From an uncultured Candidatus Saccharibacteria bacterium (GTDB taxonomy: Bacteria > Patescibacteriota > Minisyncoccia > Phycocordibacterales > UBA918), in contig CAYGTP010000002.1 in the NCBI GenBank assembly GCA_964352875.1, positions 4,244 to 68,243 on the forward strand: a DNA stretch of 64,000 nucleotides. Direction: 5' to 3'. The notes under the pieces are model-generated. The model was not told the origin of the DNA. It saw only the letters and a list, made by a program, of their open reading frames with translations, and made no database searches. A program made the translations under genes and the position numbers. Shown in pieces: positions 2,044 to 44,643 of the stretch; position 1 is the first letter of the stretch; every line of letters begins with the position of its first letter.

Positions 2044-3912
2044 ATGACGCAAAGCTTTAATACTCCCAAAACCAGCATACAGAGCGTTATGCTCTATCAG
2101 ATTGTCTATCGCAGCCGTTTCGTATGGTACGCAGTTTTCTTATTGATTGTCGTTTTTTTAGTGCAACCAATTGAACAAGCGGTCGCTGCTGAAGTGGGTG
2201 AAGAGGAACCAGCCGAAGAAGCACCTGCTGTTGCAAATGAGCCTGATGTAGTATCCACGCAGGCACCTGAAGCGGTAGAGGAAGAGATAGTAGATGAAAT
2301 AGAGGTAGACGATGAAATAGAAGTCGTTGAGGATGACACTTCTACAGAAACAATTGATACACCAAACCAAAACACTGCTATCACTGATGTAGTGCCTGAA
2401 CCTAATGCAGCTGATTCAGTTGAGGAGTCCGAGTATCCAGCTGACAATAGCGAAGATACACAACCGAAGGCTACCGGTACTGTCGTTACGACTGTAGAAG
2501 GAGATAGTAGTACTGAATCAACGGAGTCTGACAGTGGCGAATCAATTTCTACTGTAGCAATTGATGCAGCTAGCACCAGCGCTACCACAGCCCTGAGTAC
2601 AACAACAACCAATACTGGCGATAGTACTGTGGGTGGTGGTGAAACAGCTAACTCAGAAGTGGAGTCAACGACTGCAACTAGTACTGCAGCAACCACAACT
2701 GTTGAAACTACCTCAGTAACTGATGAGGGTGAAACCCAGAATGTAGATGAGGTGGTAGAAGTTGTCAGCTCTGATGCAACTGACAATGCAACTACTACCG
2801 TACTAAATGAACTTCCAGACATCGAAGACACAATAGCTACTACTACGGTAATACAACCGCCAGTTGTGGTTGACTCATATGTGGGTGAGTTTGAGTTTAA
2901 TGCTAATCAATGTTTTGAAGTCGGAGACGGTACATTTTATTGTAGTAAAGACACAAGTAAGACAGTCGAAACAGTAATCGAAGACGATCTATTTGCCGCA
3001 CCAGACGCTGACGGTGATTTAGAAATCTATCTCACCATCAATGGTGAAACCCAAAAAATCACTGATAATCAGTTAGACGATTCGGCCCCGCAGTTTGATA
3101 GTCAGTCAAATACTATGGTATGGCACCGACTGGTGAACGATCGGTATCAAATTATTCAATACAATTACGCCACGCAAGAAGAAACTCAATTAACTGACGG
3201 TCGTTTTAATAACATGGAACCGAGTGTGTACGGGGATTATATTGCTTGGCAAACCTGGGATGGACAAGATTGGGAGATTGCGCTCTATGACGGGGAGTTA
3301 AAAGAAATGATCACCAACAACAATGTGCCTGATATTGGTCCGATGATCAACGACGGTTACGTCATTTGGAATGCGGTCGGGGCTGCAGGACAAAAACAAG
3401 TCCTACTATATGATTTGGCCACTGAGCAGACCGAAGTGATTGATGATGCTGATGGGGGAGCTGTCAGTAACCCACGGTTCATTTTGGTATACGATGCGGA
3501 GTACGACAATGGCGATGTGGTAACGAGAGGTTACGACCCAGACACTGGCCGAGTTGAGCCACTGTCAGCGATCCCAGGGCAGTTACCAAAAGAACTCCCG
3601 CCCGTTGATCAGACCGGAGAAACTAGGGCCTTGATTGCCAACAAAGGTAGTTCTGGTCGTGAAGATTCTCTTGACTTGGGTGACTTTGACATCGAAACTG
3701 AACCAGAACCAACGGCCAGTACTACTGTTGCGGCCGTGGTTGCTACTTCGACGCAAGTAGTGCAGCCACCGACTGAATTAATTATTGAGAAAATTGATTT
3801 TTCTACTACCACAGAAACGATTGCGAGCAGTACACCAATCGACCCAGCTGAAATAATCGAAGACTTAATTATCCCACCTCTCCAAGGCACAACTTCAGAC
3901 GAAGCGCGGTAG
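2044..3912 (+). CDS. membrane-anchored acidic (D/E/T/S-rich) surface protein with beta-propeller-like repeats
   Basis: N-terminal TM YAVFLLIVVFLVQPI; long E/D/T/S low-complexity tract; then repeats of the TolB/PD40 flavour (YGDYIAWQTWDGQDWEIALYDGE, GYVIWNAVGAAGQKQVLLYDLAT); S/T-rich C-terminus. Confidence 0.6.
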   Translation: MTQSFNTPKTSIQSVMLYQIVYRSRFVWYAVFLLIVVFLVQPIEQAVAAEVGEEEPAEEAPAVANEPDVVSTQAPEAVEEEIVDEIEVDDEIEVVEDDTSTETIDTPNQNTAITDVVPEPNAADSVEESEYPADNSEDTQPKATGTVVTTVEGDSSTESTESDSGESISTVAIDAASTSATTALSTTTTNTGDSTVGGGETANSEVESTTATSTAATTTVETTSVTDEGETQNVDEVVEVVSSDATDNATTTVLNELPDIEDTIATTTVIQPPVVVDSYVGEFEFNANQCFEVGDGTFYCSKDTSKTVETVIEDDLFAAPDADGDLEIYLTINGETQKITDNQLDDSAPQFDSQSNTMVWHRLVNDRYQIIQYNYATQEETQLTDGRFNNMEPSVYGDYIAWQTWDGQDWEIALYDGELKEMITNNNVPDIGPMINDGYVIWNAVGAAGQKQVLLYDLATEQTEVIDDADGGAVSNPRFILVYDAEYDNGDVVTRGYDPDTGRVEPLSAIPGQLPKELPPVDQTGETRALIANKGSSGREDSLDLGDFDIETEPEPTASTTVAAVVATSTQVVQPPTELIIEKIDFSTTTETIASSTPIDPAEIIEDLIIPPLQGTTSDEAR

Positions 3913-3932: not shown

Positions 3933-6900
3933 ATGAGTACATGGTTTAAACATAACCGGCTTTTTAACTGTGGTCAAAAGCTTATCACAGGCTTTTTACT
4001 TTGTTTGCTACTATTTTCAGATGTTGTACCGCTCTTATTGTATGGTCCACTGAGCTATAACAAAATTGAGGCGGCCGAAGCACAAATCGATGACTTGGCT
4101 AGTGGCGCCCAAGCTGAACATATTCAAGCTGGTGCCAATACTGTATTTATAGATGACCAGACGGGGTATAAATTTTATGTTGAATCAAATGGTCGGTGCT
4201 TTTATAAAAAAACTACTAATGGTGGAGCTTCGTGGGGGAGTCAAACACAGTTTGATGATGATCCCAATTGTACGAGTCCGGTAGTGTGGTATGACCGATG
4301 GACGCCAGGTGACACTGGCAATTATATCCATATAACAACGCTAGCGATCGGAACTGGTGCTGAAAATATTAATTATAATCGTTTAGATACCGCAGATAAT
4401 GACGCGTTGTTGATGGGTAGCTCGCCAGTAAATATTTCTTCCACAACTATTACAACATTGAGTTTAGGAGCAGGCAACAAACAGGCGATGACTAAAGGGA
4501 CCGATGGTACGATCTACGCTGCCATTAATGACAACGGCGGGTCCCCGGTAGTTGAGTGTTCAGCTGATTGTCAGCTAGAGGGTAGTTGGAGTGCAACGGG
4601 AGTTTCACCAATGGATCTTTCGAATGACTTTTTATTACTGCAGCCAATGCTGGGGGATAATATCATGTTGATTGTTCGCGATGTGTCTGCTGAGGATATA
4701 GAGTATCAGATTTGGAATAACGCTATTTGGGGTGGAGCTTGGAATACCATTGATGCTAATGCATTTGATAACACTACCTATGACGTTGGTATGTCTGCAG
4801 TTACCCATCCTGAAACCGGTGACATCTATCTTGCCTATGTTACAGACCATCAAACCTTAGGGACCGATGATGATATACGCACAGCAAAATACACAGAAAG
4901 TTCTGGTCTATGGACCAATACGGCAGATGTCGTCACTGACGACAGTAAAGGGCTCCTCAGTGTTGCCTTAGCGCTTGATGCTAATACAAGTGATGTGTAT
5001 GTAGCGTATGCAGCTCGCACCACACCAGGTACCGCTAATAGCGCTAATGTGTATTGGGCAAGCTCGACGGCGGCAATGAGTAGTTGGAGCGGGGAGCAAG
5101 GACCGGTTAATAGTGGGAGCGATAATAACTACGGCCTTTCGTTAAATCATTATTCAGACGAGCGAATCCACGCGTCATGGTACGATGACGCTTCGCGTGA
5201 TGTGTTGAGTGACACTATTGCAGATATCACGCCAGTTACTGTCGTTACAGCAACCGGCACACAACGTGCGACGGTACGGGCCAGTACATCAGCAACTTAC
5301 ATTGGTGGGGCGTTTGTCATTAAAGAGAATGTCACAACGAGAAATGTAACTAGTATTACAATCACTGAGCAAGGTACAATAGACGGAGCAACTGCAATTG
5401 GAAATATTGCGCTCTTCTATGATATTTCGACCACTTCCCCGTACAATTGCAGTGAAGACTCATACCAAGGCAATGAGCCACAATTTGACGTCACTGATAC
5501 GAATGGATTTTCAGGTGCTAATGGAATCGCCAGCTTTTCTGATCTTGTGGCTATTTCACCTACTGACACGCTGTGCGTCTATCCAGTGGTAGAGGTTTTA
5601 AAATCTGCCAATGACGGCGATACTATCGATATTACTATTACGAACCCAGCCACTGACGTGTTGGTTGGTGGAAGTGTGACAGCAGTACCGTCGAGTGTGA
5701 TTTCTATTACTGGCAGTACCACTGTGCGTGATGATGTGCTGACGCAGACCCACTATCATTGGCGACAAGATACGGGTAGTGAAGCGCTCTCACCGTCCGC
5801 AACCGGTGGTATAGAAGATACCCCAATTAGTGCTTTGCAGACCGAAGTACCTCGACGACTCCGCATTGGGCTGTCAAACGATGGTTCGACCACAACGTTT
5901 CCGACTACATTTCGGCTTGAGTATGGCGTAGCGGCACCAACCTGCAATGATGTCGGGACGTGGATTGATGTTGCGGAGGCGGATGATGATTGGAATATGT
6001 TTGATTCTAGTAATCTTACCAACGGAGCTGATACCACAGACGTGGCAGTTGGGCTCGGAGGGGTATCGCCAGAAAATAACTTCTTCCTTACACCCAATGG
6101 TGGCGTCCGCGATACCGAATCTGAGACCGGCAGTATGCAAGTAGATTTTGATGAATACACTGCCCTTGAGTATTCGATTGTCGCTTCAACTACGGCCACG
6201 GAAGGAAATACGTATTGCTTTCGTGTGTCGGATCAGGGTCAACCAATTGAACAGTACGATGTGTTGCCACAAGTGACTATTTCAGCAGATGTGCGGGTTC
6301 GAGCCACTGGTACCCAGGCAGTCTCAGCTGATATCCCAACTGATAATCTCTATATCGGAGGTGCTTTTACCATTACCGAAAATGTTTCCAGTCGTGATGT
6401 TACAAGCGTCACATTGACTGAAGTTGGCACGGTTGACGGTGCTGCTGGTGTGACTGACATTCGATTATATTATGATCTTGATACGACGTTCCCATATAAC
6501 TGTGCGAGCGAATCATTTACTGGAAATGAATTGCAGTATGGAGCAACCTCGACAGCGTTCTCGAGTGCCAACGGATCAACTACGTTTACTGCCACAGTGG
6601 GGATTAGTACTACCAGTACACTCTGTCTCTATCCAGTACTCGATATCACACCAGATGCTACCGATGGGGAGACGGTGGATGTGATTCTCAGTTCTGGTTC
6701 TGGTGATGTTGTAGTGTCTGGCGGGGGGTCGGTAGCACCAACGACACCAATCGACATAACTGGCTCCACGACCCTCAATGGCGCGATTGTGACGCAGACA
6801 CACTACCACTGGCGAAATGATTCAGGGAGTGAAACTGGTGCCAGTTCAGCAACTGGCGGTATCGAAGATACGCCACTGACAGATTTCGATTTAGGAGCTG

Positions 6901-38572: not shown

Positions 38573-38645
38573 GGGCTCGTAGCTCATCTGGTAGAGCGCC
38601 TCATTTGCACTGAGGAGGTAGCGGGTTCAAGTCCTGTCGAGTCCA
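38573..38645 (+). tRNA. tRNA-Ala (anticodon TGC), CCA not encoded
   Basis: Hand-folded cloverleaf: acceptor GGGCTCG/CGAGTCC with G3:U70 Ala identity pair, D arm GCTC/GAGC, anticodon loop TT-TGC-AC, T arm GCGGG-TTCAAGT-CCTGT. Confidence 0.85.
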
Positions 38646-38650
38646 CATTA

Positions 38651-38674
38651 AAACAGCCTTTCGAGGCTGTTTTT
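38651..38674 (+). terminator. rho-independent terminator immediately after tRNA-Ala
   Basis: AAACAGCCT-TTCG-AGGCTGTTTTT. Confidence 0.75.
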
Positions 38675-38833
38675 GTGTGGACTCGAAGCAAGCAAACTGC
38701 TTTGCTTGTGTCAGGACTTGAACGCCGGAGACATGTCGAACGCAGCGGAGCGAGTACGACAGTCGAGGTGTGTCCCGCGGCACCTGCTAGATTGTGAGCA
38801 GAGCGAAACAATATAGCTTGGTGACCGTCAGGA

Positions 38834-38852
38834 CAAGTCCTGTCGAGTCCAC
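38834..38852 (+). repeat. 19-nt direct repeat of the tRNA-Ala 3' end (CAAGTCCTGTCGAGTCCAC), att-like
   Basis: Exact copy of 38628-38646 located 188 nt downstream; an inverted partial copy (rc of 38676-38686 and 38712-38723) lies between them. Confidence 0.8.
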
Positions 38853-38875
38853 CAAACCTGTTGAAAAATCACCTT

Positions 38876-38897
38876 GTTACGTAACATGTTACGTAAC
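38876..38897. promoter_or_regulatory. tandem palindromic decamers GTTACGTAAC-AT-GTTACGTAAC (candidate operator)
   Basis: Two exact copies of a self-complementary 10-mer, 12 nt upstream of the AbrB-like ORF. Confidence 0.55.
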
Positions 38898-38908
38898 AAA
38901 CTGTAGCT

Positions 38909-39070
38909 ATGAAGCAAAAACAAAATATTAGAAAAATAACTCGGGTAGGACAGCGGAGTTTAGCAGTAGTACTACCAGCCGCAATAGTGAAAGAGTTGGG
39001 GTGGCGAGAACGACAAAAGTTGGTGGTAAAGCGAGTAGGGAAGAGGGTGATAATTGAAGATTGGGAGTGA
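38909..39070 (+). CDS. AbrB/MazE/SpoVT-family small DNA-binding protein (53 aa)
   Basis: MKQKQNIRKITRVGQRSLAVVLPAAIVKELGWRERQKLVVKRVGKRVIIEDWE; swapped-hairpin LP..IVKELGW signature; under 60 aa so absent from the ORF track. Confidence 0.5.
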   Translation: MKQKQNIRKITRVGQRSLAVVLPAAIVKELGWRERQKLVVKRVGKRVIIEDWE

Positions 39071-39097
39071 TTATATCACGCTGCTCGAACCGCTTTC

Positions 39098-39541
39098 ATG
39101 AAAGCCACCAAAACTCAGAAGGAGTTGGTCATTTTTACCACCGGCCGCAAGCAGGTAAAGCTGCGCGGCGATTTTCGTAATGAGACACTCTGGGCTACTC
39201 AGGCAGAACTAGTGAAGCTGTTTGACGTTGATCAATCTGTTATTTCTCGCCATATACAAAATATCTTTAAAGATGCTGAGGTAGAGCAGGAAAGCAATAT
39301 GCAAAAAATGCATATTGCAAATTCTGACAAGCCAGTAACACTATATTCCTTAGATATCGTTCTAGCAGTGGGGTATAGAACTAACTCAGCAGTAGCAATT
39401 AAGTTCCGTCAATGGGCCACTACCGTCCTCCGGCAACACATAACCGACGGCTATACCATTAACCGGTCGCGCATCGGTGAAAACTACGAAGCCTTTATGG
39501 CGGCGGTTGAAAATCTCAAAGCCCTGGCGCCTGCCCGGTAG
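39098..39541 (+). CDS. RhuM-family protein, N-terminal conserved domain only (truncated)
   Basis: KELVIFTTGRKQVKLRGDFRNETLWATQAELVKLFDVDQSVISRHIQNIFKDAEV...LDIVLAVGYRTNSAVAIKFRQWATTVL matches the RhuM N-domain; full-length members are about 330 aa. Confidence 0.6.
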   Translation: MKATKTQKELVIFTTGRKQVKLRGDFRNETLWATQAELVKLFDVDQSVISRHIQNIFKDAEVEQESNMQKMHIANSDKPVTLYSLDIVLAVGYRTNSAVAIKFRQWATTVLRQHITDGYTINRSRIGENYEAFMAAVENLKALAPAR

Positions 39542-39548
39542 TAACAGA

Positions 39549-39580
39549 CGCCCGGCCCGCTCACGCTCGCCGGGCGTTTG
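39549..39580 (+). terminator. GC-rich hairpin terminator ACGCCCGGC-N12-GCCGGGCGT-TTGTG
   Basis: 9-bp GC stem followed by a T-containing tail; followed by the extended -10 TGGTATACT at 39585-39593. Confidence 0.55.
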
Positions 39581-39605
39581 TGCGGTTTGGTATACTCAGG
39601 CGGTT

Positions 39606-40751
39606 ATGTCTTTCAAATTCCATCTGCTGATTATTGGTGTTGTGGCAGTGCTGTCTGTGCTCGCGTTTCTATGGTGGCCGCAGCTTGCGCTCGAGTGGGG
39701 TACTGCCGCTACTTCCACCGCTTCATTCACCGACACCGAAGCGGGCTTTGAGGCAGAGCCAGAGAATGGTGATGTCGCAGCGCACCTCACCGCAACTCCG
39801 ACGCCCGAGTACCGAGTGGGACGCGGGCAGTACACGCTCGCCGAGCTAGCTAGCTGGGAACGGCCCGCTGGTCCGCTGCGGGTGGGAGTGCAGATTGGCC
39901 ACCTCGATAATGGCGATGTGCCAGAGGAACTCTCGGGCCTGACACGCAATGGCGCCGGGGCAGTCTGGGGGCCATACAACGAACGCGACACGATGGCCGT
40001 GATTGCCGAGCTCGTTGCGGCTGAACTCCGAGCAAATGACATTGAAGTAGAACTGCTGCCAGCGGTGGTGCCACCCGGCTATGTAGCTGATGCGTTTGTC
40101 TCCATCCATGCTGATGGAAATACCAATGAATCAGTGCGGGGGTTTAAGATTGCTGGTCCACGGCGCGACTACGCCGGCACCTCCGAAGCGCTGGTCGACG
40201 CGCTGTACGAGAGCTACGCTGCCGCGACTGGTCTCCCGCAAGACCCGTCCATCTCGCGCCGCATGACCGCCTATTACGCCTTCAACTGGCCACGCTATGA
40301 GCACGCGATCCATCCTTTCACCCCATCGGTGATTGTCGAGACGGGCTTTCTCACCAACGCAGCCGACCGCGCTTTTCTACTCAATGAACCAGAACGTGCT
40401 GCCGCCGGCATCGCGGCCGGCATTGTAGCGTTTCTTGAGAGTAATCCAGAGCCGGTGCCGCCACCGGGCTCGCTCACTGCGCCGGCCTTGCCACTTTCTG
40501 GCGCCGTCGAATGCGCACCGGTGCGTGCTGAACGTCGCGACCGCGATAGCCGTCCGTGTGAGGCGGCGCTACGCGATGCCGACGGCTACCATTACCTCCT
40601 CCTGTCTGAGCCTCCGCTGGCCACCAGTAGCCTGCCGTACGAAGCGACAATCTCTGGGCAGTATATGCCGGTGCAGGTGCTTGATAATTACTTTTGGTTT
40701 CAGTACGAAGTGCGTGGACTTATTATAGTCGAAGATATTGAATCAGAATGA
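39606..40751 (+). CDS. N-acetylmuramoyl-L-alanine amidase (Amidase_3 family), membrane-anchored, GC-rich foreign gene
   Basis: N-terminal TM; VQIGHLDNG...FVSIHADGN...SVIVETGFLTN motif set of Amidase_3; GC visibly above 60% versus about 45% in flanks. Confidence 0.65.
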   Translation: MSFKFHLLIIGVVAVLSVLAFLWWPQLALEWGTAATSTASFTDTEAGFEAEPENGDVAAHLTATPTPEYRVGRGQYTLAELASWERPAGPLRVGVQIGHLDNGDVPEELSGLTRNGAGAVWGPYNERDTMAVIAELVAAELRANDIEVELLPAVVPPGYVADAFVSIHADGNTNESVRGFKIAGPRRDYAGTSEALVDALYESYAAATGLPQDPSISRRMTAYYAFNWPRYEHAIHPFTPSVIVETGFLTNAADRAFLLNEPERAAAGIAAGIVAFLESNPEPVPPPGSLTAPALPLSGAVECAPVRAERRDRDSRPCEAALRDADGYHYLLLSEPPLATSSLPYEATISGQYMPVQVLDNYFWFQYEVRGLIIVEDIESE

Positions 40752-40762
40752 TTTAAGAGTTC

Positions 40763-41623
40763 GTGTATAATCCATCTATGACAACCGAAGAAAAATTCAA
40801 CGATTTAAAATATATAGTTGAAGGCATAGGGAAGCGGGCGCACGATTATTTTAACTCTGCTAGTGTTGATAATGAACAAAAGGCCGATGGTTCGGTGGTT
40901 ACTGAGATTGATAAAGCGATCGAACGATCTATTCGTGAATATATCCTCGTCAATTTCCCTGACGACACCATTATTGGTGAAGAACAAGATACGAGAGAAG
41001 GAACGAGCGGGTATGTGTGGCACGTCGATCCGATTGATGGCACGGACAATTTTCTTAGAAAGATTCCGTTTTTCGCTATTTCCATTGCACGCTTGGGTGA
41101 CACTCCGGCTGAGTCGTTTGCGATTATTCATAATCCCACCACCAAGCAAACTTTTTCGACTTTTATGGAAACAGAAGGTGGGGTGTTTGAAAATGAAAAG
41201 ATCTGTGAACTTTCAGCCGAACCGCTGGGCGGGAAGTTAATTATGTCGGTCGGGCGTGGCGGTGAGCCGTGGATGAAGAAAGCATTCTATCCTTTGTCTA
41301 AAAAAATCGGTCTCAAGTATGGACGCTGTGCATCATACAACTGTACCGCACTCGAGTTGGCGTACGTTGCAGCCAACAGAATTGACGCTTATCTAACGTA
41401 CGGTCTGCATACGTGGGACTACGCCGCTGGATTTTTCCTCGTCAAGGCAGCCGGCGGAGCGATCAGTGTATTTGAGAACGGAGAGTGGCAACGCTGGGAT
41501 AAAAGCATCAAGGAACTCTGTTCTGAGCACGGTAGATTCATCTTTACCTCTCATCCTGACATGCACGAAGAGTTTTTGACTGAGATAGGGAAACCAACGG
41601 AGTGGGAAGGGAGGGAGGAATGA
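40763..41623 (+). CDS. inositol monophosphatase family protein (SuhB-like)
   Basis: WHVDPIDGTDNFL and WDYAAG motifs. Confidence 0.8.
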   Translation: MYNPSMTTEEKFNDLKYIVEGIGKRAHDYFNSASVDNEQKADGSVVTEIDKAIERSIREYILVNFPDDTIIGEEQDTREGTSGYVWHVDPIDGTDNFLRKIPFFAISIARLGDTPAESFAIIHNPTTKQTFSTFMETEGGVFENEKICELSAEPLGGKLIMSVGRGGEPWMKKAFYPLSKKIGLKYGRCASYNCTALELAYVAANRIDAYLTYGLHTWDYAAGFFLVKAAGGAISVFENGEWQRWDKSIKELCSEHGRFIFTSHPDMHEEFLTEIGKPTEWEGREE

Positions 41624-41902
41624 TTTGTTGGGAATCGAACTCTGCTAATTCAGTACTGGTTGTTGCTATGGGGTGGGGAATCGACTATTTCTACACTCCT
41701 CTCCGTCGGTAGAAATATTGTTCGCGATCTTGACTCATTTGCCCCAAGGCAATCAACGGGGAATCTTTCGTTACACGAACAGTATACCTTGTGGCTATAT
41801 TATTTCGCTCTGCTCATAATCTAGCGCACAAGGTCTTCGATTCCCACGTAACGTGCCCCCGGCACGTTACTCGCGGGTCCACTCATTCACTTTGTTCATT
41901 CG

Positions 41903-41973
41903 TGGACCCGCGGGGAATCGAACCCCGAATTCATCCATGCCATGGATGTGTGTTACCGTTATACCACGGGCCC
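41903..41973 (-). tRNA. tRNA-Ala (anticodon GGC)
   Basis: Reverse-complement folds as GGGCCCG acceptor with G3:U70, anticodon loop AT-GGC-AT, T arm CGGGG-TTCGATT-CCCCG, 3' CGGGTCC-A; one A:C mismatch in the D stem. Confidence 0.6.
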
Positions 41974-42110
41974 AAGTTGGCGAGATTTTAGCATAGTTTT
42001 GCTGAATATCTAATTATTGTAGGGTACTACCGCAAGCACTTCCATTTTGCGTACAATTTGGTAGTATAGCGGGGAAGCAACGGATAGTTGCGGGACAGAA
42101 TTAGGAATCG

Positions 42111-42127
42111 AATAGAAATTCTATTCT
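42111..42127. promoter_or_regulatory. perfect inverted repeat GAATAGAA-A-TTCTATTC in the 360-nt leader of the V-ATPase operon
   Basis: 8-bp arms, 1-nt spacer, about 210 nt upstream of the first ATPase gene. Confidence 0.4.
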
Positions 42128-42339
42128 CGTTTTGTCTCGCAGCGCCAGCTTCACTGGTAGCTCGTATGGTATTGCCATACTCGTATAGTATTTTCCCCGT
42201 TCCTAGCTTGACTAACTACCCAAAGGCGGTAGTATGCAGTCGCACAAATGACGTTCTCAGAAAGGAGAATTCTACTCGGTGCGCTTGGTAGGCTGTCGAC
42301 TTACGTTTGGAGAGAGTGCTATCAAACTAAGTATATTTT

Positions 42340-42651
42340 ATGTCAGTAATTGAAGAAATTAAAGCCGCTGAAGCGGCAGCAGTACAAACTATCGAAGACG
42401 CCAAAATTGAAGGCGCTCGGCTCGTTGCTGAAGCGCAAACAGCTCAAAAATCAACCCTTGATGCCACCAAAAAGCAGCTTCAAGACATTGAGGTTGCCTC
42501 ACTGCAATCACATCAGGTAGTGATTAATGACAAGCAGCAAAAAATTGCAGCTGAAGCCGCTGATACCGTGGCTGCGTTTGAAACTACAGTCAAGGCTGCT
42601 GCAGGTGCCCATAAAGACTTGATAAAAAAGACTTTTCTCTCAAGTAACTAG
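42340..42651 (+). CDS. V/A-type ATPase small peripheral-stalk subunit (NtpF / subunit G-H-like)
   Basis: 103-aa all-helical A/E/K/Q-rich protein in the first position of an ntpFIKECGABD-ordered operon. Confidence 0.5.
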   Translation: MSVIEEIKAAEAAAVQTIEDAKIEGARLVAEAQTAQKSTLDATKKQLQDIEVASLQSHQVVINDKQQKIAAEAADTVAAFETTVKAAAGAHKDLIKKTFLSSN

Positions 42652-42660
42652 ATACATTTT

Positions 42661-44643
42661 ATGGCAGTTCTCCAGATGCAAAAACTCCGCTTGGTCATAC
42701 ATCAAAACGATGTCAATCGTCTGTTAGAACTAGTGCAACCAAGCGCTGCCGTTGAATTTATTGATACTAATACTGATGATTTGGTTGAGATAGCGGTAAT
42801 ATTTACGCACCAGGAGTTGCTTACCCACGTGCAGCAAGCCATTTTGTTTTTAGGAAATCATGAAGTAGCACCGGGGATGTGGCATACATTGCGAAATGGC
42901 TCTTTTACTACTCTTTCCGAAGCTGACATCAAAACCGCAGCTACTGATACTACGGTTATAAAGTCGTTATTAGAGCAAACTGATACACTGCAAGCCAACT
43001 ATACGGCAGCACAAAATGAAGTCAAAACCCTTACGGATCAAATTGCTGCCCTGACGGCCTGGCAAAGGCTGCCCTTTGCAGTCTCGGATTGCCAAACCAG
43101 CACTACCACCACATATCTCTTGGAATACGTAGGGAAGAAGCCATCGGTAGTAAGTCAGATTGTACAAACCCTTACTGAACGAAGCCAAGAAGCCGAACTA
43201 GCAGTGGTAGCGACGGCAATCAGTGATACACAATTGACCCTGACGGTACATACTGAAACGGTAACGATGTCACAAGTTACTGCACTGCTGGACGACCTTG
43301 AAATAACTATTGCAGCCGACCTCCCAGGTACTGAATTACCTACGATTGAATTACAACGGACACAAGAACGACTGACGAATGCTACCGTATCCTTGGCGGC
43401 TATCTCAGCTCAGTGTGCAAATTTTGCTAACGCTCACCTCCGTGAGCTTAGAATTTGTGGGGAAGTACTCAACTGGGAGCGCGATCGTGTTAGTGCTTTA
43501 GCGACTGCGAAAGCCACTGCCGAAACTACCGTGATGGATGCCTGGGTAGTAGCCGACTATCGCCCGACTTTAGAAAGAGTTATTGCAAATAATCATATAG
43601 CCGCAGTCATTCAAGATCTAGAACTAGAAGCCGATGAAGAACCACCAGTTGAGATTCGTAATTCTGAATTTTTCAAGCCGTTTGAAGTGATTACTAGACT
43701 CTATGGTATGCCGGGTTATAAAGACTTAGATCCAACTGCGTTCTTGGCAGGTTTCTTCTTTCTATTTTTCGGTTTGTCACTTACGGATGTAGGGTACGGT
43801 GCCTTTTTGATGATTGTATCAGTTGGAGTATTAACATTGTTTGTCGTCCCACCAATTGTCCGAACTTTTACAAAACTGTTATTTTTGATGGGCCTTGGTT
43901 CTTTTTTGGTTGGGTTACTCTTTGGTGGATATCTTGGAATTGCACCAGAATCACTACCAGCTGTGCTTCGAGCCATCCAAGTATTTGATCCAATTGGTAA
44001 CCCGTTGCCAGTCTTTTATCTCGCGCTTGGTCTCGGCGTCTTCCAAGTAATGGTTGGTATGGTACTTAAAATATACAGTGAGGCACGTAATAACCGTCTG
44101 GTATCAGGGTTACTGGATCAAGGTCCATGGTTGTTCGTATTCTGTCTGGGTATTGCGTATATTGGGGTAGTGACTGGATACCTCAGTGGTATCACTGAAT
44201 CGCAACTGATCAACCTTATGTACGTCGGGGTAGTACTCATCGTGGTTGCCAGTGGCCGGCACGGAAAGACGTTTTTTGAAATGATCCAAAAAAGTCTCCT
44301 CAGCCTTTACGATAGTATCGGATATTTTTCAGACATCCTTTCGTACTCTAGACTCTTAGCACTTGGATTAGCCACTACTGCACTAGCTTTTGCAGTTAAC
44401 CTTATTGCTGAAATTGTCAGTGACTCAGTGCCATATCTGGGGCCAGTGCTTGCAATCGTTGTGCTCGTTATCGGCCACCTTTTCACCCTGGCCGTGAACA
44501 CACTAGGAGCATTTATTCACAGCGCTCGACTTCAATTTGTAGAGTTTTTTGGCAAGTTCATTAGTGGAACTGGCCGAGAATTCAAACCGCTGGCTAGGTC
44601 CTATCGCTACATCGCAGCCAAGGACGAGTCGTCATCGGCTTGA
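42661..44643 (+). CDS. ntpI: V/A-type ATPase subunit I (a subunit)
   Basis: 660 aa, hydrophilic N-terminal half then multi-TM C-terminal half with the conserved Arg-containing helix region. Confidence 0.8.
   Translation: MAVLQMQKLRLVIHQNDVNRLLELVQPSAAVEFIDTNTDDLVEIAVIFTHQELLTHVQQAILFLGNHEVAPGMWHTLRNGSFTTLSEADIKTAATDTTVIKSLLEQTDTLQANYTAAQNEVKTLTDQIAALTAWQRLPFAVSDCQTSTTTTYLLEYVGKKPSVVSQIVQTLTERSQEAELAVVATAISDTQLTLTVHTETVTMSQVTALLDDLEITIAADLPGTELPTIELQRTQERLTNATVSLAAISAQCANFANAHLRELRICGEVLNWERDRVSALATAKATAETTVMDAWVVADYRPTLERVIANNHIAAVIQDLELEADEEPPVEIRNSEFFKPFEVITRLYGMPGYKDLDPTAFLAGFFFLFFGLSLTDVGYGAFLMIVSVGVLTLFVVPPIVRTFTKLLFLMGLGSFLVGLLFGGYLGIAPESLPAVLRAIQVFDPIGNPLPVFYLALGLGVFQVMVGMVLKIYSEARNNRLVSGLLDQGPWLFVFCLGIAYIGVVTGYLSGITESQLINLMYVGVVLIVVASGRHGKTFFEMIQKSLLSLYDSIGYFSDILSYSRLLALGLATTALAFAVNLIAEIVSDSVPYLGPVLAIVVLVIGHLFTLAVNTLGAFIHSARLQFVEFFGKFISGTGREFKPLARSYRYIAAKDESSSA

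Follow-up and report, generated by a model that had tools for sequence, protein, structure and literature searches.

A compact, structured module copying the end of tRNA-Ala(TGC) in a Candidatus Saccharibacteria contig and its family at other gene ends

Introduction

Patescibacteria have tiny genomes in which few mobile elements are recognised, and repeats flanking transfer RNA (tRNA) genes are routinely taken for the scars of genomic islands. Here we describe the locus behind tRNA-Ala(TGC) in an uncultured Candidatus Saccharibacteria bacterium, within a stretch of 64,000 nt that is called the window below (GenBank assembly GCA_964352875.1, contig CAYGTP010000002.1, positions 4,244 to 68,243 of the forward strand; positions are those of the window). 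Direct and inverted fragments of the tRNA lie downstream of this gene, and the original prediction read them as layered scars of repeated integrase-mediated insertion and excision, followed by a decayed islet with an AbrB-like gene, a RhuM fragment and an amidase gene. As set out below, the fragments are instead the arms that close one conserved module of about 200 nt, which recurs behind about 29 tRNA species, and of the three downstream genes only the amidase looks horizontally acquired.

Results

The units behind the two tRNA genes of the window

The window holds two tRNA genes, tRNA-Ala(TGC) and tRNA-Ala(GGC), which face each other across AbrB-like, RhuM-like, amidase and suhB-like genes (Table 1). 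Directly 3' of tRNA-Ala(TGC) there is, as predicted, a terminator-like hairpin (AAAACAGCCT-TTCG-AGGCTGTTTT), which together with the acceptor strand of the tRNA gives arms of 23 nt with 91% complementarity. It is followed by an inverted copy of the tRNA 3' region (X') in two pieces, X'a and X'b, which are contiguous within the tRNA and are separated downstream by a hairpin; the split copy had been described correctly, while the hairpin is 25 nt long rather than 26 nt. The tRNA 3' end then returns in direct orientation (X) as an exact 19-nt repeat, CAAGTCCTGTCGAGTCCAC, at 38628-38646 and 38834-38852, again as predicted. When the 19-mer was searched elsewhere, no third match was present in the 64 kb at up to 3 mismatches, and none of 100 shuffles reached the same. 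The pair brackets only 187 nt (38647-38833) and not the 2-kb gene set, which begins outside it at 38909. Terminator hairpin, split inverted copy and direct copy are parts of one unit of about 205 nt (38647-38854), for which a closed multi-helix fold is predicted.

The same layout is found behind tRNA-Ala(GGC), but there it is made from the 3' sequence of that tRNA. Indeed, the 32-nt boxes in the cores of the two units (41794-41825 and 38786-38817) show 2 differences and have the same orientation relative to their own tRNA, and both units fold closed by pairing of X'a with Xa and of X'b with Xb, with z = -6.6 for the TGC unit and z = -4.3 for the GGC unit. In the window, the covariance model R1 finds only these two tRNA flanks and, weakly, a decayed unit at 41621-41699. 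Upstream of tRNA-Ala(GGC), about 350 nt (41990-42330) are non-coding and contain T-loop-like fragments on the minus strand (42069-42076 and 42104-42112) with no model match.

Table 1. Features of the window between and around the two tRNA-Ala genes
Feature	Position	Strand	Remarks
tRNA-Ala(TGC)	38573-38646	+	ARAGORN; Rfam tRNA 63.3 bits; positions 53-74 (X) copied in both orientations downstream
Hairpin B	38647-38676	+	A-tract, GC stem, UUCG loop, T-tract; terminator-like
X'a	38677-38686	+	reverse complement of acceptor 3' strand, tRNA positions 65-74
hp1	38687-38711	+	25-nt hairpin between X'a and X'b; kept in all tRNA-Ala(TGC) units
X'b	38712-38723	+	reverse complement of T-loop and T-stem 3' strand, tRNA positions 53-64
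Junction CGCCGGAG, variable hairpin D, GAGG	38724-38766	+	
Long conserved hairpin, A-type core	38767-38833	+	GTGTCCCGCGGCACCT-box (38786-38817)-TTGGTGACCGTCAGGA; R1 34.4 bits
X	38834-38854	+	tRNA positions 56-74 in direct orientation, then CA; predicted to close the module by pairing with X'a and X'b
Two tandem palindromic 12-mers TGTTACGTAACA	38874-38899	+	just upstream of AbrB-like gene; putative operator
AbrB/MazE-fold protein, 53 aa	38909-39070	+	Pfam MazE/AbrB E 9e-7; GC 43%
Short RhuM-family protein, 147 aa	39098-39541	+	N-terminal domain only; Pfam E 7e-16; GC 46%
GC-rich hairpin, 13-nt arms	39544-39581	+	between RhuM-like and amidase genes
Membrane-anchored Amidase_3 protein, 381 aa	39606-40751	+	Pfam E 4e-13; GC 59.7%
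SuhB-like, inositol-monophosphatase family	40763-41623	+	Pfam Inositol_P; GC 46%, host-like
Decayed second B-type unit	41621-41699	-	GTACTG-hairpin-GTTCGATTCCC; abuts suhB stop codon; R1 13.8 bits, E 0.31 (weak)
B-type module behind tRNA-Ala(GGC)	41750-41901	-	R1 94.5 bits; begins with a spacer
Partial direct copy of T-loop segment, GGC unit	41757-41765	-	
Box in core of GGC unit	41794-41825	-	32 nt
X'b of GGC unit	41836-41845	-	inverted T-loop segment
hp1 of GGC unit	41846-41871	-	26-nt hairpin
X'a of GGC unit	41872-41882	-	inverted acceptor strand of tRNA-Ala(GGC)
tRNA-Ala(GGC)	41902-41973	-	convergent with tRNA-Ala(TGC)

A family of modules in metagenome loci

A degenerate 30-nt pattern of the box, first verified locally, was searched in metagenome stretches and in IMG/VR viral contigs, and it was found in 115 of the former and had 0 matches among the latter. 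A tRNA on the same strand lies 65-310 nt upstream of 69 of the 124 box instances, and an opposite-strand tRNA is nearby in just 1 of them. Both copies, the inverted and the direct one, correspond to the local tRNA in 54 non-redundant tRNA-linked cases from metagenomes. R1 gave 161 hits, up to 7 per locus, in 100 motif-selected loci (683 kb in total) and, in a 715-kb search that included the non-Patescibacteria loci L019-L052, none in these; in a hand-listed set, 47 of 93 full-length model hits sit less than 500 nt downstream of a same-strand tRNA. Box instances and model hits together represent about 29 anticodons, and the order of tRNA, hairpin, inverted copy and direct copy was also seen in loci fetched for other reasons (L009, L057 and L061). 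The module is thus a compact (about 95-205 nt), multi-copy, structured family in Patescibacteria-like genomes, of which no description was found in full-text literature searches. Group I introns that lie within Patescibacteria tRNA genes (PMC13011429) are located in the anticodon loop and are distinct from the module.

Structure and covariation

Three subtypes share the box hairpin. The A-type, represented by the TGC unit of the window, reads ...TTCGAAC-CGNCGGAG-hairpin-GAG-GTGTCCCGCGGCACCT-box-TTGGTGACCGTCAGGAC-X, while the B-type, to which the GGC unit belongs, reads X'b-GA-P2-box-P2'-GTACTG-hairpin(UGUAA)-X; the C-type is found away from tRNAs in tandem arrays of about 95 nt. In the B-type core, an ungapped alignment of 37 sequences has 93.5% of its cells paired, against 31-44% in slid controls, and double changes occur in 16 of 24 pairs with 195 covarying cells, which was equalled in 0 of 500 shuffles. 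The B-type core thus carries the compensatory base-pair changes by which conserved structured RNA is recognised. The long hairpin of the A-type is almost invariant, yet 22 of 23 sequences keep a G-U pair in it and a few compensatory changes are seen. From an only mild excess of G-U over A-C cells, the strand that runs with the tRNA is favoured as the candidate RNA strand.

Tandem arrays of modules are common. One C-type array, in L133, is enclosed by the long-range stem CATGGATTGC...GCAATCCATG, inside which three tandem module variants form a stand-alone structured region of about 310 nt (4239-4546, plus strand) between two minus-strand genes, and this region looks like an independent large non-coding RNA gene assembled from the modules. 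Endings like GCAATCCA also occur in L081, L084, L113 and L143.

As for known RNA classes, in the window only the tRNAs reach the gathering threshold of Rfam 15, and no family matches the module. No self-cleaving ribozyme, Y RNA, group I intron or transfer-messenger RNA (tmRNA) passes, and the CUGANGA...GAAA motif of the hammerhead was absent from the core when inspected by eye. To our knowledge, there is no other RNA class that fits the core.

The tRNA-Ala(TGC) locus in relatives

The unit is kept at tRNA-Ala(TGC) in L065, L127, L135, L172 and L074, and also in L138 and L162. The relatives that keep it are 64-74% identical to the window in UvrC (72-74% in the four whose match is near full length) and 83-84% in UvrA. 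Among these orthologous units X', hp1 and the core are near-identical, and the direct copy is exact over 19-22 nt in five relatives, 17 nt long in L162 and 13-14 nt long in L129, while hairpin B differs wholly in sequence and yet always remains terminator-like. Since X', core and X are kept across diverged relatives, the unit appears to be maintained rather than decaying.

When the same tRNA locus was compared, as had been proposed, gene content downstream of tRNA-Ala(TGC) differed in every relative examined, including those with the best matches to the core genes of the window, and many contigs stop at this tRNA or just past it. The locus is thus variable, and in this respect its description as a hotspot holds, whereas the reading of the fragments as island scars does not. 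The linkage of ddl and tRNA-Ala(TGC) is widely conserved across the phylum; contigs of related Saccharibacteria (L060, with the tRNA at 3433-3507, L001, L008 and L018) end at or within about 200 nt past the tRNA that follows ddl, L060 only 2 nt past it. In L138 (7550-9610), tRNA-Ala(TGC) and its unit are inverted, and thus convergent, relative to ddl, and on the other side they adjoin homologues of the window genes at 52.4-60.6 kb, which indicates a rearrangement with its breakpoint at tRNA and unit.

Duplicated gene ends at other targets

Besides tRNA 3' ends, units are also found upstream of tRNAs, with direct repeats of the tRNA 5' half (30 and 28 nt) at their flanks, and in L154 the complement spans a breakpoint in the anticodon loop. 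The target can also be a protein gene. Indeed, msrA of L057 is preceded by two units, and behind either of them stands a copy of the 5' coding end of msrA. The upstream copy (MSQEYKKAVLAGGCFW...), the old start, is truncated and the downstream one (MNQKAVLAGGCFWGLE...), the new start, is intact, with differences between them at synonymous sites. At tRNA 5' halves and at the 5' end of msrA the gene-end duplicate is present every time. Also in L057 (2340-2725), a tRNA-Gln(TTG) has such sequences on either side. Upstream lie 22 nt copied from its 5' end, at a distance of about 155 nt, and an inverted D-loop fragment, at about 40 nt; downstream there is a B-type unit with a 16-nt direct copy.

On contig Ga0306870_1000102 (L157/L174), two identical units of about 170 nt lie in the same orientation 16.5 kb apart, at about 2.2 kb and 18.7 kb. 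One follows tRNA-Ser(GCT), and the other is not behind a tRNA but retains an X' specific to Ser. Of the 16.5 kb between them, about 10.7 kb were readable and hold metal-resistance-like accessory genes; the products encoded there are DUF305, DUF411, cupredoxin, DsbA-like, MauE, ferric-reductase-like and AbiEii-like ATPase proteins. A separate open reading frame (ORF) of 331 aa with a weak LAGLIDADG_3 match lies upstream of the tRNA-Ser in L157. Box matches are about twofold enriched near the ends of sequences, many of which are contig ends (31 observed against about 15 expected).

Clustering of the ORFs within 4 kb of the modules returned just syntenic housekeeping genes or helix-turn-helix (HTH)-like and LAGLIDADG-like genes, and no recombinase was linked to the modules. 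Members of an HTH family of about 225 aa lie at a distance of 0.2-3.5 kb from the box near module-bearing tRNA-Gly, tRNA-Pro and tRNA-Arg, in all loci except L063 on the module strand and to the tRNA side; they were seen in L067 (3924-5322, two tandem paralogues), L063, L064, L069, L071, L116, L141, L145, L148, L167, L168 and L170. This recurrence probably reflects conserved synteny.

Genes downstream of the unit

The ORFs tested between the two tRNAs (38909-41623) encode MazE/AbrB, RhuM, Amidase_3 and Inositol_P domains only, and the statement that no integrase remains is borne out in that no integrase or recombinase is among them. The AbrB-like gene has, as predicted, no toxin partner beside it, the next gene being of the RhuM family. 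Homologues of 52 aa with about 70% identity stand alone elsewhere, in L110 and L140, where no toxin was recognisable when the neighbouring ORFs were read without a Pfam scan. The RhuM-like protein matches its family (PF13310) with 58.8 bits, against a cut-off of 33.7, but only over profile positions 13-69 of 252, so that it has the N-terminal domain alone. It is no fragment, since many Patescibacteria homologues of 137-165 aa, some of them on large contigs, align with it from end to end (93-99% of the query) and exceed it by no more than about 10 residues; it is thus the common short form rather than a sign of decay. Both genes look intact.

The case of the amidase is different. Its GC content, which had been noted as far above background, amounts to 59.7%, as compared with 45.1% in the remainder of the window, making it the top GC outlier of 46 ORFs (against the 45 others, z = 5.0 for GC and 4.0 for GC at third codon positions, GC3), and the gene is thus compositionally foreign. 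The Amidase_3 domain (PF01520) is matched with 50.4 bits against a cut-off of 27, the protein is full length with a conserved C-terminus, and H99, E126, H168 and E245, the putative zinc ligands, are invariant in 8 homologues. The GC-rich hairpin upstream of the gene is present, while the extended -10 promoter assigned to it was not reported by a promoter scan. In the search for its origin, the closest homologues had 65-71% identity in an eight-sequence alignment and 67-73% in BLASTP. The remaining sequence of their contigs has 52-59% GC, as compared with about 46% for the contigs of more distant homologues, and the amidase was therefore probably acquired from a higher-GC Patescibacterium, as judged from sequence comparison. 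In the seven homologue contexts examined, no tRNA, RhuM-family or suhB-like (Inositol_P) gene adjoins the amidase.

Two other arguments on this gene were abandoned. Transfer from an actinobacterial host to its epibiont was rejected, as, among the top 120 homologues listed, none of those that carry a source name is named outside Patescibacteria. A relative-rate argument (best match 73% for the amidase against 53% for Ddl) was dropped because Ddl is fast-evolving, UvrC and UvrA being 72-84% identical in relatives whose Ddl is only about 40% identical. The GC-rich block starts at about 39450-39500. Over the last 35 or so codons of the amidase, GC3 is host-like at 0.43 and the homologue that agrees best at third positions is one of low GC (L054), which weakly suggests a mosaic gene with a native 3' end and a foreign body. 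The block is roughly flanked by an exact 10-nt direct repeat, CCGACGGCTA (39444-39453 and 40579-40588), which is probably due to chance. Beyond the second tRNA, ORFs of 103 aa and of 660 aa, the latter a multi-pass membrane protein, follow one another at 42340-44643 and are not at this position in L065 and L135; their products are putative V/A-type ATPase-like subunits.

Discussion

The reading towards which we lean is that the module is a small non-autonomous insertion element, able to form a structured RNA, which would occupy gene ends while restoring them. At tRNAs, the module consists of a terminator hairpin, of X' as the complement of the segment from the T-loop to the 3' end, often split by a hairpin, of a conserved junction core with the 32-nt box hairpin, and of X as the direct copy whose pairing with X' closes the fold. 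This layout, the family, the covariation and the duplicated gene ends are observed, and the mechanism is inferred. The element would integrate into the gene end, with a breakpoint in the T-loop or in the anticodon arm, by means of an enzyme acting in trans, and would supply a replacement gene end together with a terminator, so that the gene would remain intact while the displaced original end would be left on the far side. The strand co-oriented with the tRNA would give the structured RNA, whose closing helix would sequester the displaced tRNA fragment. The part of the original prediction that saw insertion-associated duplications of the tRNA 3' end in the fragments is retained here. Insertion-like behaviour is indicated by the units at tRNA 5' halves and ahead of msrA, by the two identical units on Ga0306870_1000102, by the tandem arrays and by the excess of box matches near sequence ends. 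Several observations weigh against this reading. The duplications are 12-55 nt long, unlike a target-site duplication of fixed length; no integrase or transposase is among the 25 commonest of the 133 Pfam families in the 150 nearest downstream ORFs, which are mostly housekeeping genes; and no pair of a filled and an empty site was found in closely related genomes, the best relatives having 72-74% identity in UvrC. Moreover, metagenome assemblies can join repeats chimerically, the evidence for the RNA strand is weak (32 G-U against 25 A-C cells, 12 of the latter at a single column pair), the terminator between tRNA and core makes transcription of the core hard to account for, and that the unit has been kept for so long at tRNA-Ala(TGC) would be expected just as well of a functional RNA that is resident.

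Such a resident, cis-acting RNA, which would not be mobile, is a possible but clearly less probable explanation. The module would then co-evolve with its tRNA and serve in processing, in termination or as an insulator, or else be a small stable RNA; X' and X, or the tRNA copy of X and X'a, would form a duplex of about 20 bp used in maturation, by RNase III, P or Z for instance, and local duplication, with unequal recombination among copies of X, would produce the copies and arrays. The strong covariation of the helices with conserved loops, the persistence of the unit in relatives as diverged as 64-74% in UvrC (five with a 19-22-nt exact direct copy), the housekeeping neighbours without a recombinase nearby and stand-alone multi-module RNAs closed by long-range stems, such as that of L133, are all in keeping with it. 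Local duplication, however, hardly accounts for about 29 tRNAs, for tRNA 5' halves and for the 5' end of msrA, each with its matching duplication, and it does not explain why one of two identical units lies 16.5 kb away from its tRNA-Ser with an X' that is non-cognate there. The terminator ahead of the core is a difficulty here too, and so is the enrichment of box matches near sequence ends.

The original reading as unrelated attachment (att) scars of successive larger islands, of which the AbrB-like, RhuM-like and amidase genes would be the decayed remnant, is improbable and, for the repeats, largely refuted. The T-loop is a classical crossover site of tRNA-targeting tyrosine integrases, and the duplication does start there; the changing gene content downstream of tRNA-Ala(TGC), the amidase as a GC outlier and the accessory genes between the two units of Ga0306870_1000102 would also suit this explanation. 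Yet fragments and intervening sequence make up one conserved fold at more than 100 loci, the repeat pair of the window encloses no genes, X and X' are exact across diverged relatives where decay would be expected, the RhuM-like and AbrB-like genes are intact-looking and typical of the phylum, and an integrase is neither present in this region of the window nor enriched near modules. Equally unlikely, in our estimate, is an RNA-programmed, self-inserting element, in which X' and X would direct a trans-acting recombinase or nuclease to the gene end in the manner of a bridge or guide RNA, or in which the module would act as a ribozyme; it would account for the retargeting of a single conserved core to about 30 different tRNA ends and to the ends of protein genes. 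A tRNA-primed retroelement with X' as its primer-binding site was considered and set aside, given that X' complements the gene and its trailer and not the CCA-tailed mature tRNA, although some direct copies do end in CCA. Finally, the window comes from a metagenome-assembled genome, in which repeats can be mis-joined, but chance similarity or an assembly artefact is effectively excluded: the shuffles never yield the 19-mer twice, the box occurs twice in the window against 0 expected, an independent Logan assembly reproduces 39.3-41.96 kb including the box on the GGC side, and the family recurs in many independent samples.

With 161 hits in 683 kb of motif-selected loci, the modules would be an abundant, overlooked and unannotated genome component of the phylum, which can be mistaken for att sites and may contribute to assembly breaks at tRNA genes. 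As structured nucleic acids that take their closing helix anew from the end of each target gene, they are also open to testing: if mobile, the modules would represent a new way to occupy gene ends without destroying genes, and if resident RNAs, a new class with a link to the maturation of tRNAs in reduced genomes. The decayed islet, taken alone, would have been an ordinary claim, and the amidase is an ordinary result as one more intra-phylum transfer of a cell-wall enzyme; the interest lies in the module family.

Comparison with known systems

Several known systems share part of this architecture. Miniature inverted-repeat transposable element (MITE)-like and extragenic repeats (REP/BIME, BOX, Correia, RUP) are likewise small, non-coding, multi-copy and intergenic, with modular subtypes, arrays and stable hairpins, and by size and copy number the modules fall in this class (about 100-300 nt). 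In the module, however, the terminal inverted repeats copy the adjacent gene end instead of being fixed element ends, the flanking duplications are long and variable rather than short and of fixed length, and there is a strong preference for tRNA gene ends. The attC sites of integrons and of clusters of attC sites lacking integron integrases (CALIN) offer a similar succession of core site, short 'cassette', inverse core site, structured spacer and repeated core site, with structure partly conserved above sequence, but the module has neither RYYYAAC/GTTRRRY boxes nor IntI, its arms of 10-22 nt are tRNA-derived, and its loops and junctions are highly conserved. Casposons, which are mobilised by Cas1, also target tRNA 3' ends with long target duplications and tandem arrays; theirs are fixed at 14-15 bp and come with terminal inverted repeats and Cas1 and PolB genes, none of which is found in the module.

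The two-piece (permuted) tmRNA has the same order of T-arm, acceptor 3' strand, intervening hairpin and complementary strand, and this order explains the sub-threshold Rfam matches to it behind both tRNAs (38621-38687, plus strand, 12.5 bits, and 41874-41927, minus strand, 25.5 bits, against a gathering score of 47). The likeness is architectural only, as the module lacks a tag reading frame and pseudoknots and has a complete tRNA upstream. As for a classical island, no direct repeats bracket genes and no integrase lies by the tRNA. In composition, the amidase deviates, and the AbrB-like, RhuM-like and suhB-like genes are host-like. All in all, the unit falls outside classical islands, MITEs, attC sites and every Rfam family. 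With tRNA-targeting integrative elements and islands, and with their integrase-less forms of the cis-mobilizable element (CIME) type, it shares the tRNA 3' end as a site, the duplication from T-loop to 3' end that keeps the tRNA intact, a terminator of its own and tandem accretion with repeated att-like copies. It departs from them in its size of about 100-200 nt without genes and without an integrase nearby, in the inverted copy of the att segment, in the covarying RNA-like core and in the sites at tRNA 5' halves and at the 5' end of a protein gene. By analogy, among the systems compared, the unit is most like a miniature tRNA-targeting integrative element.

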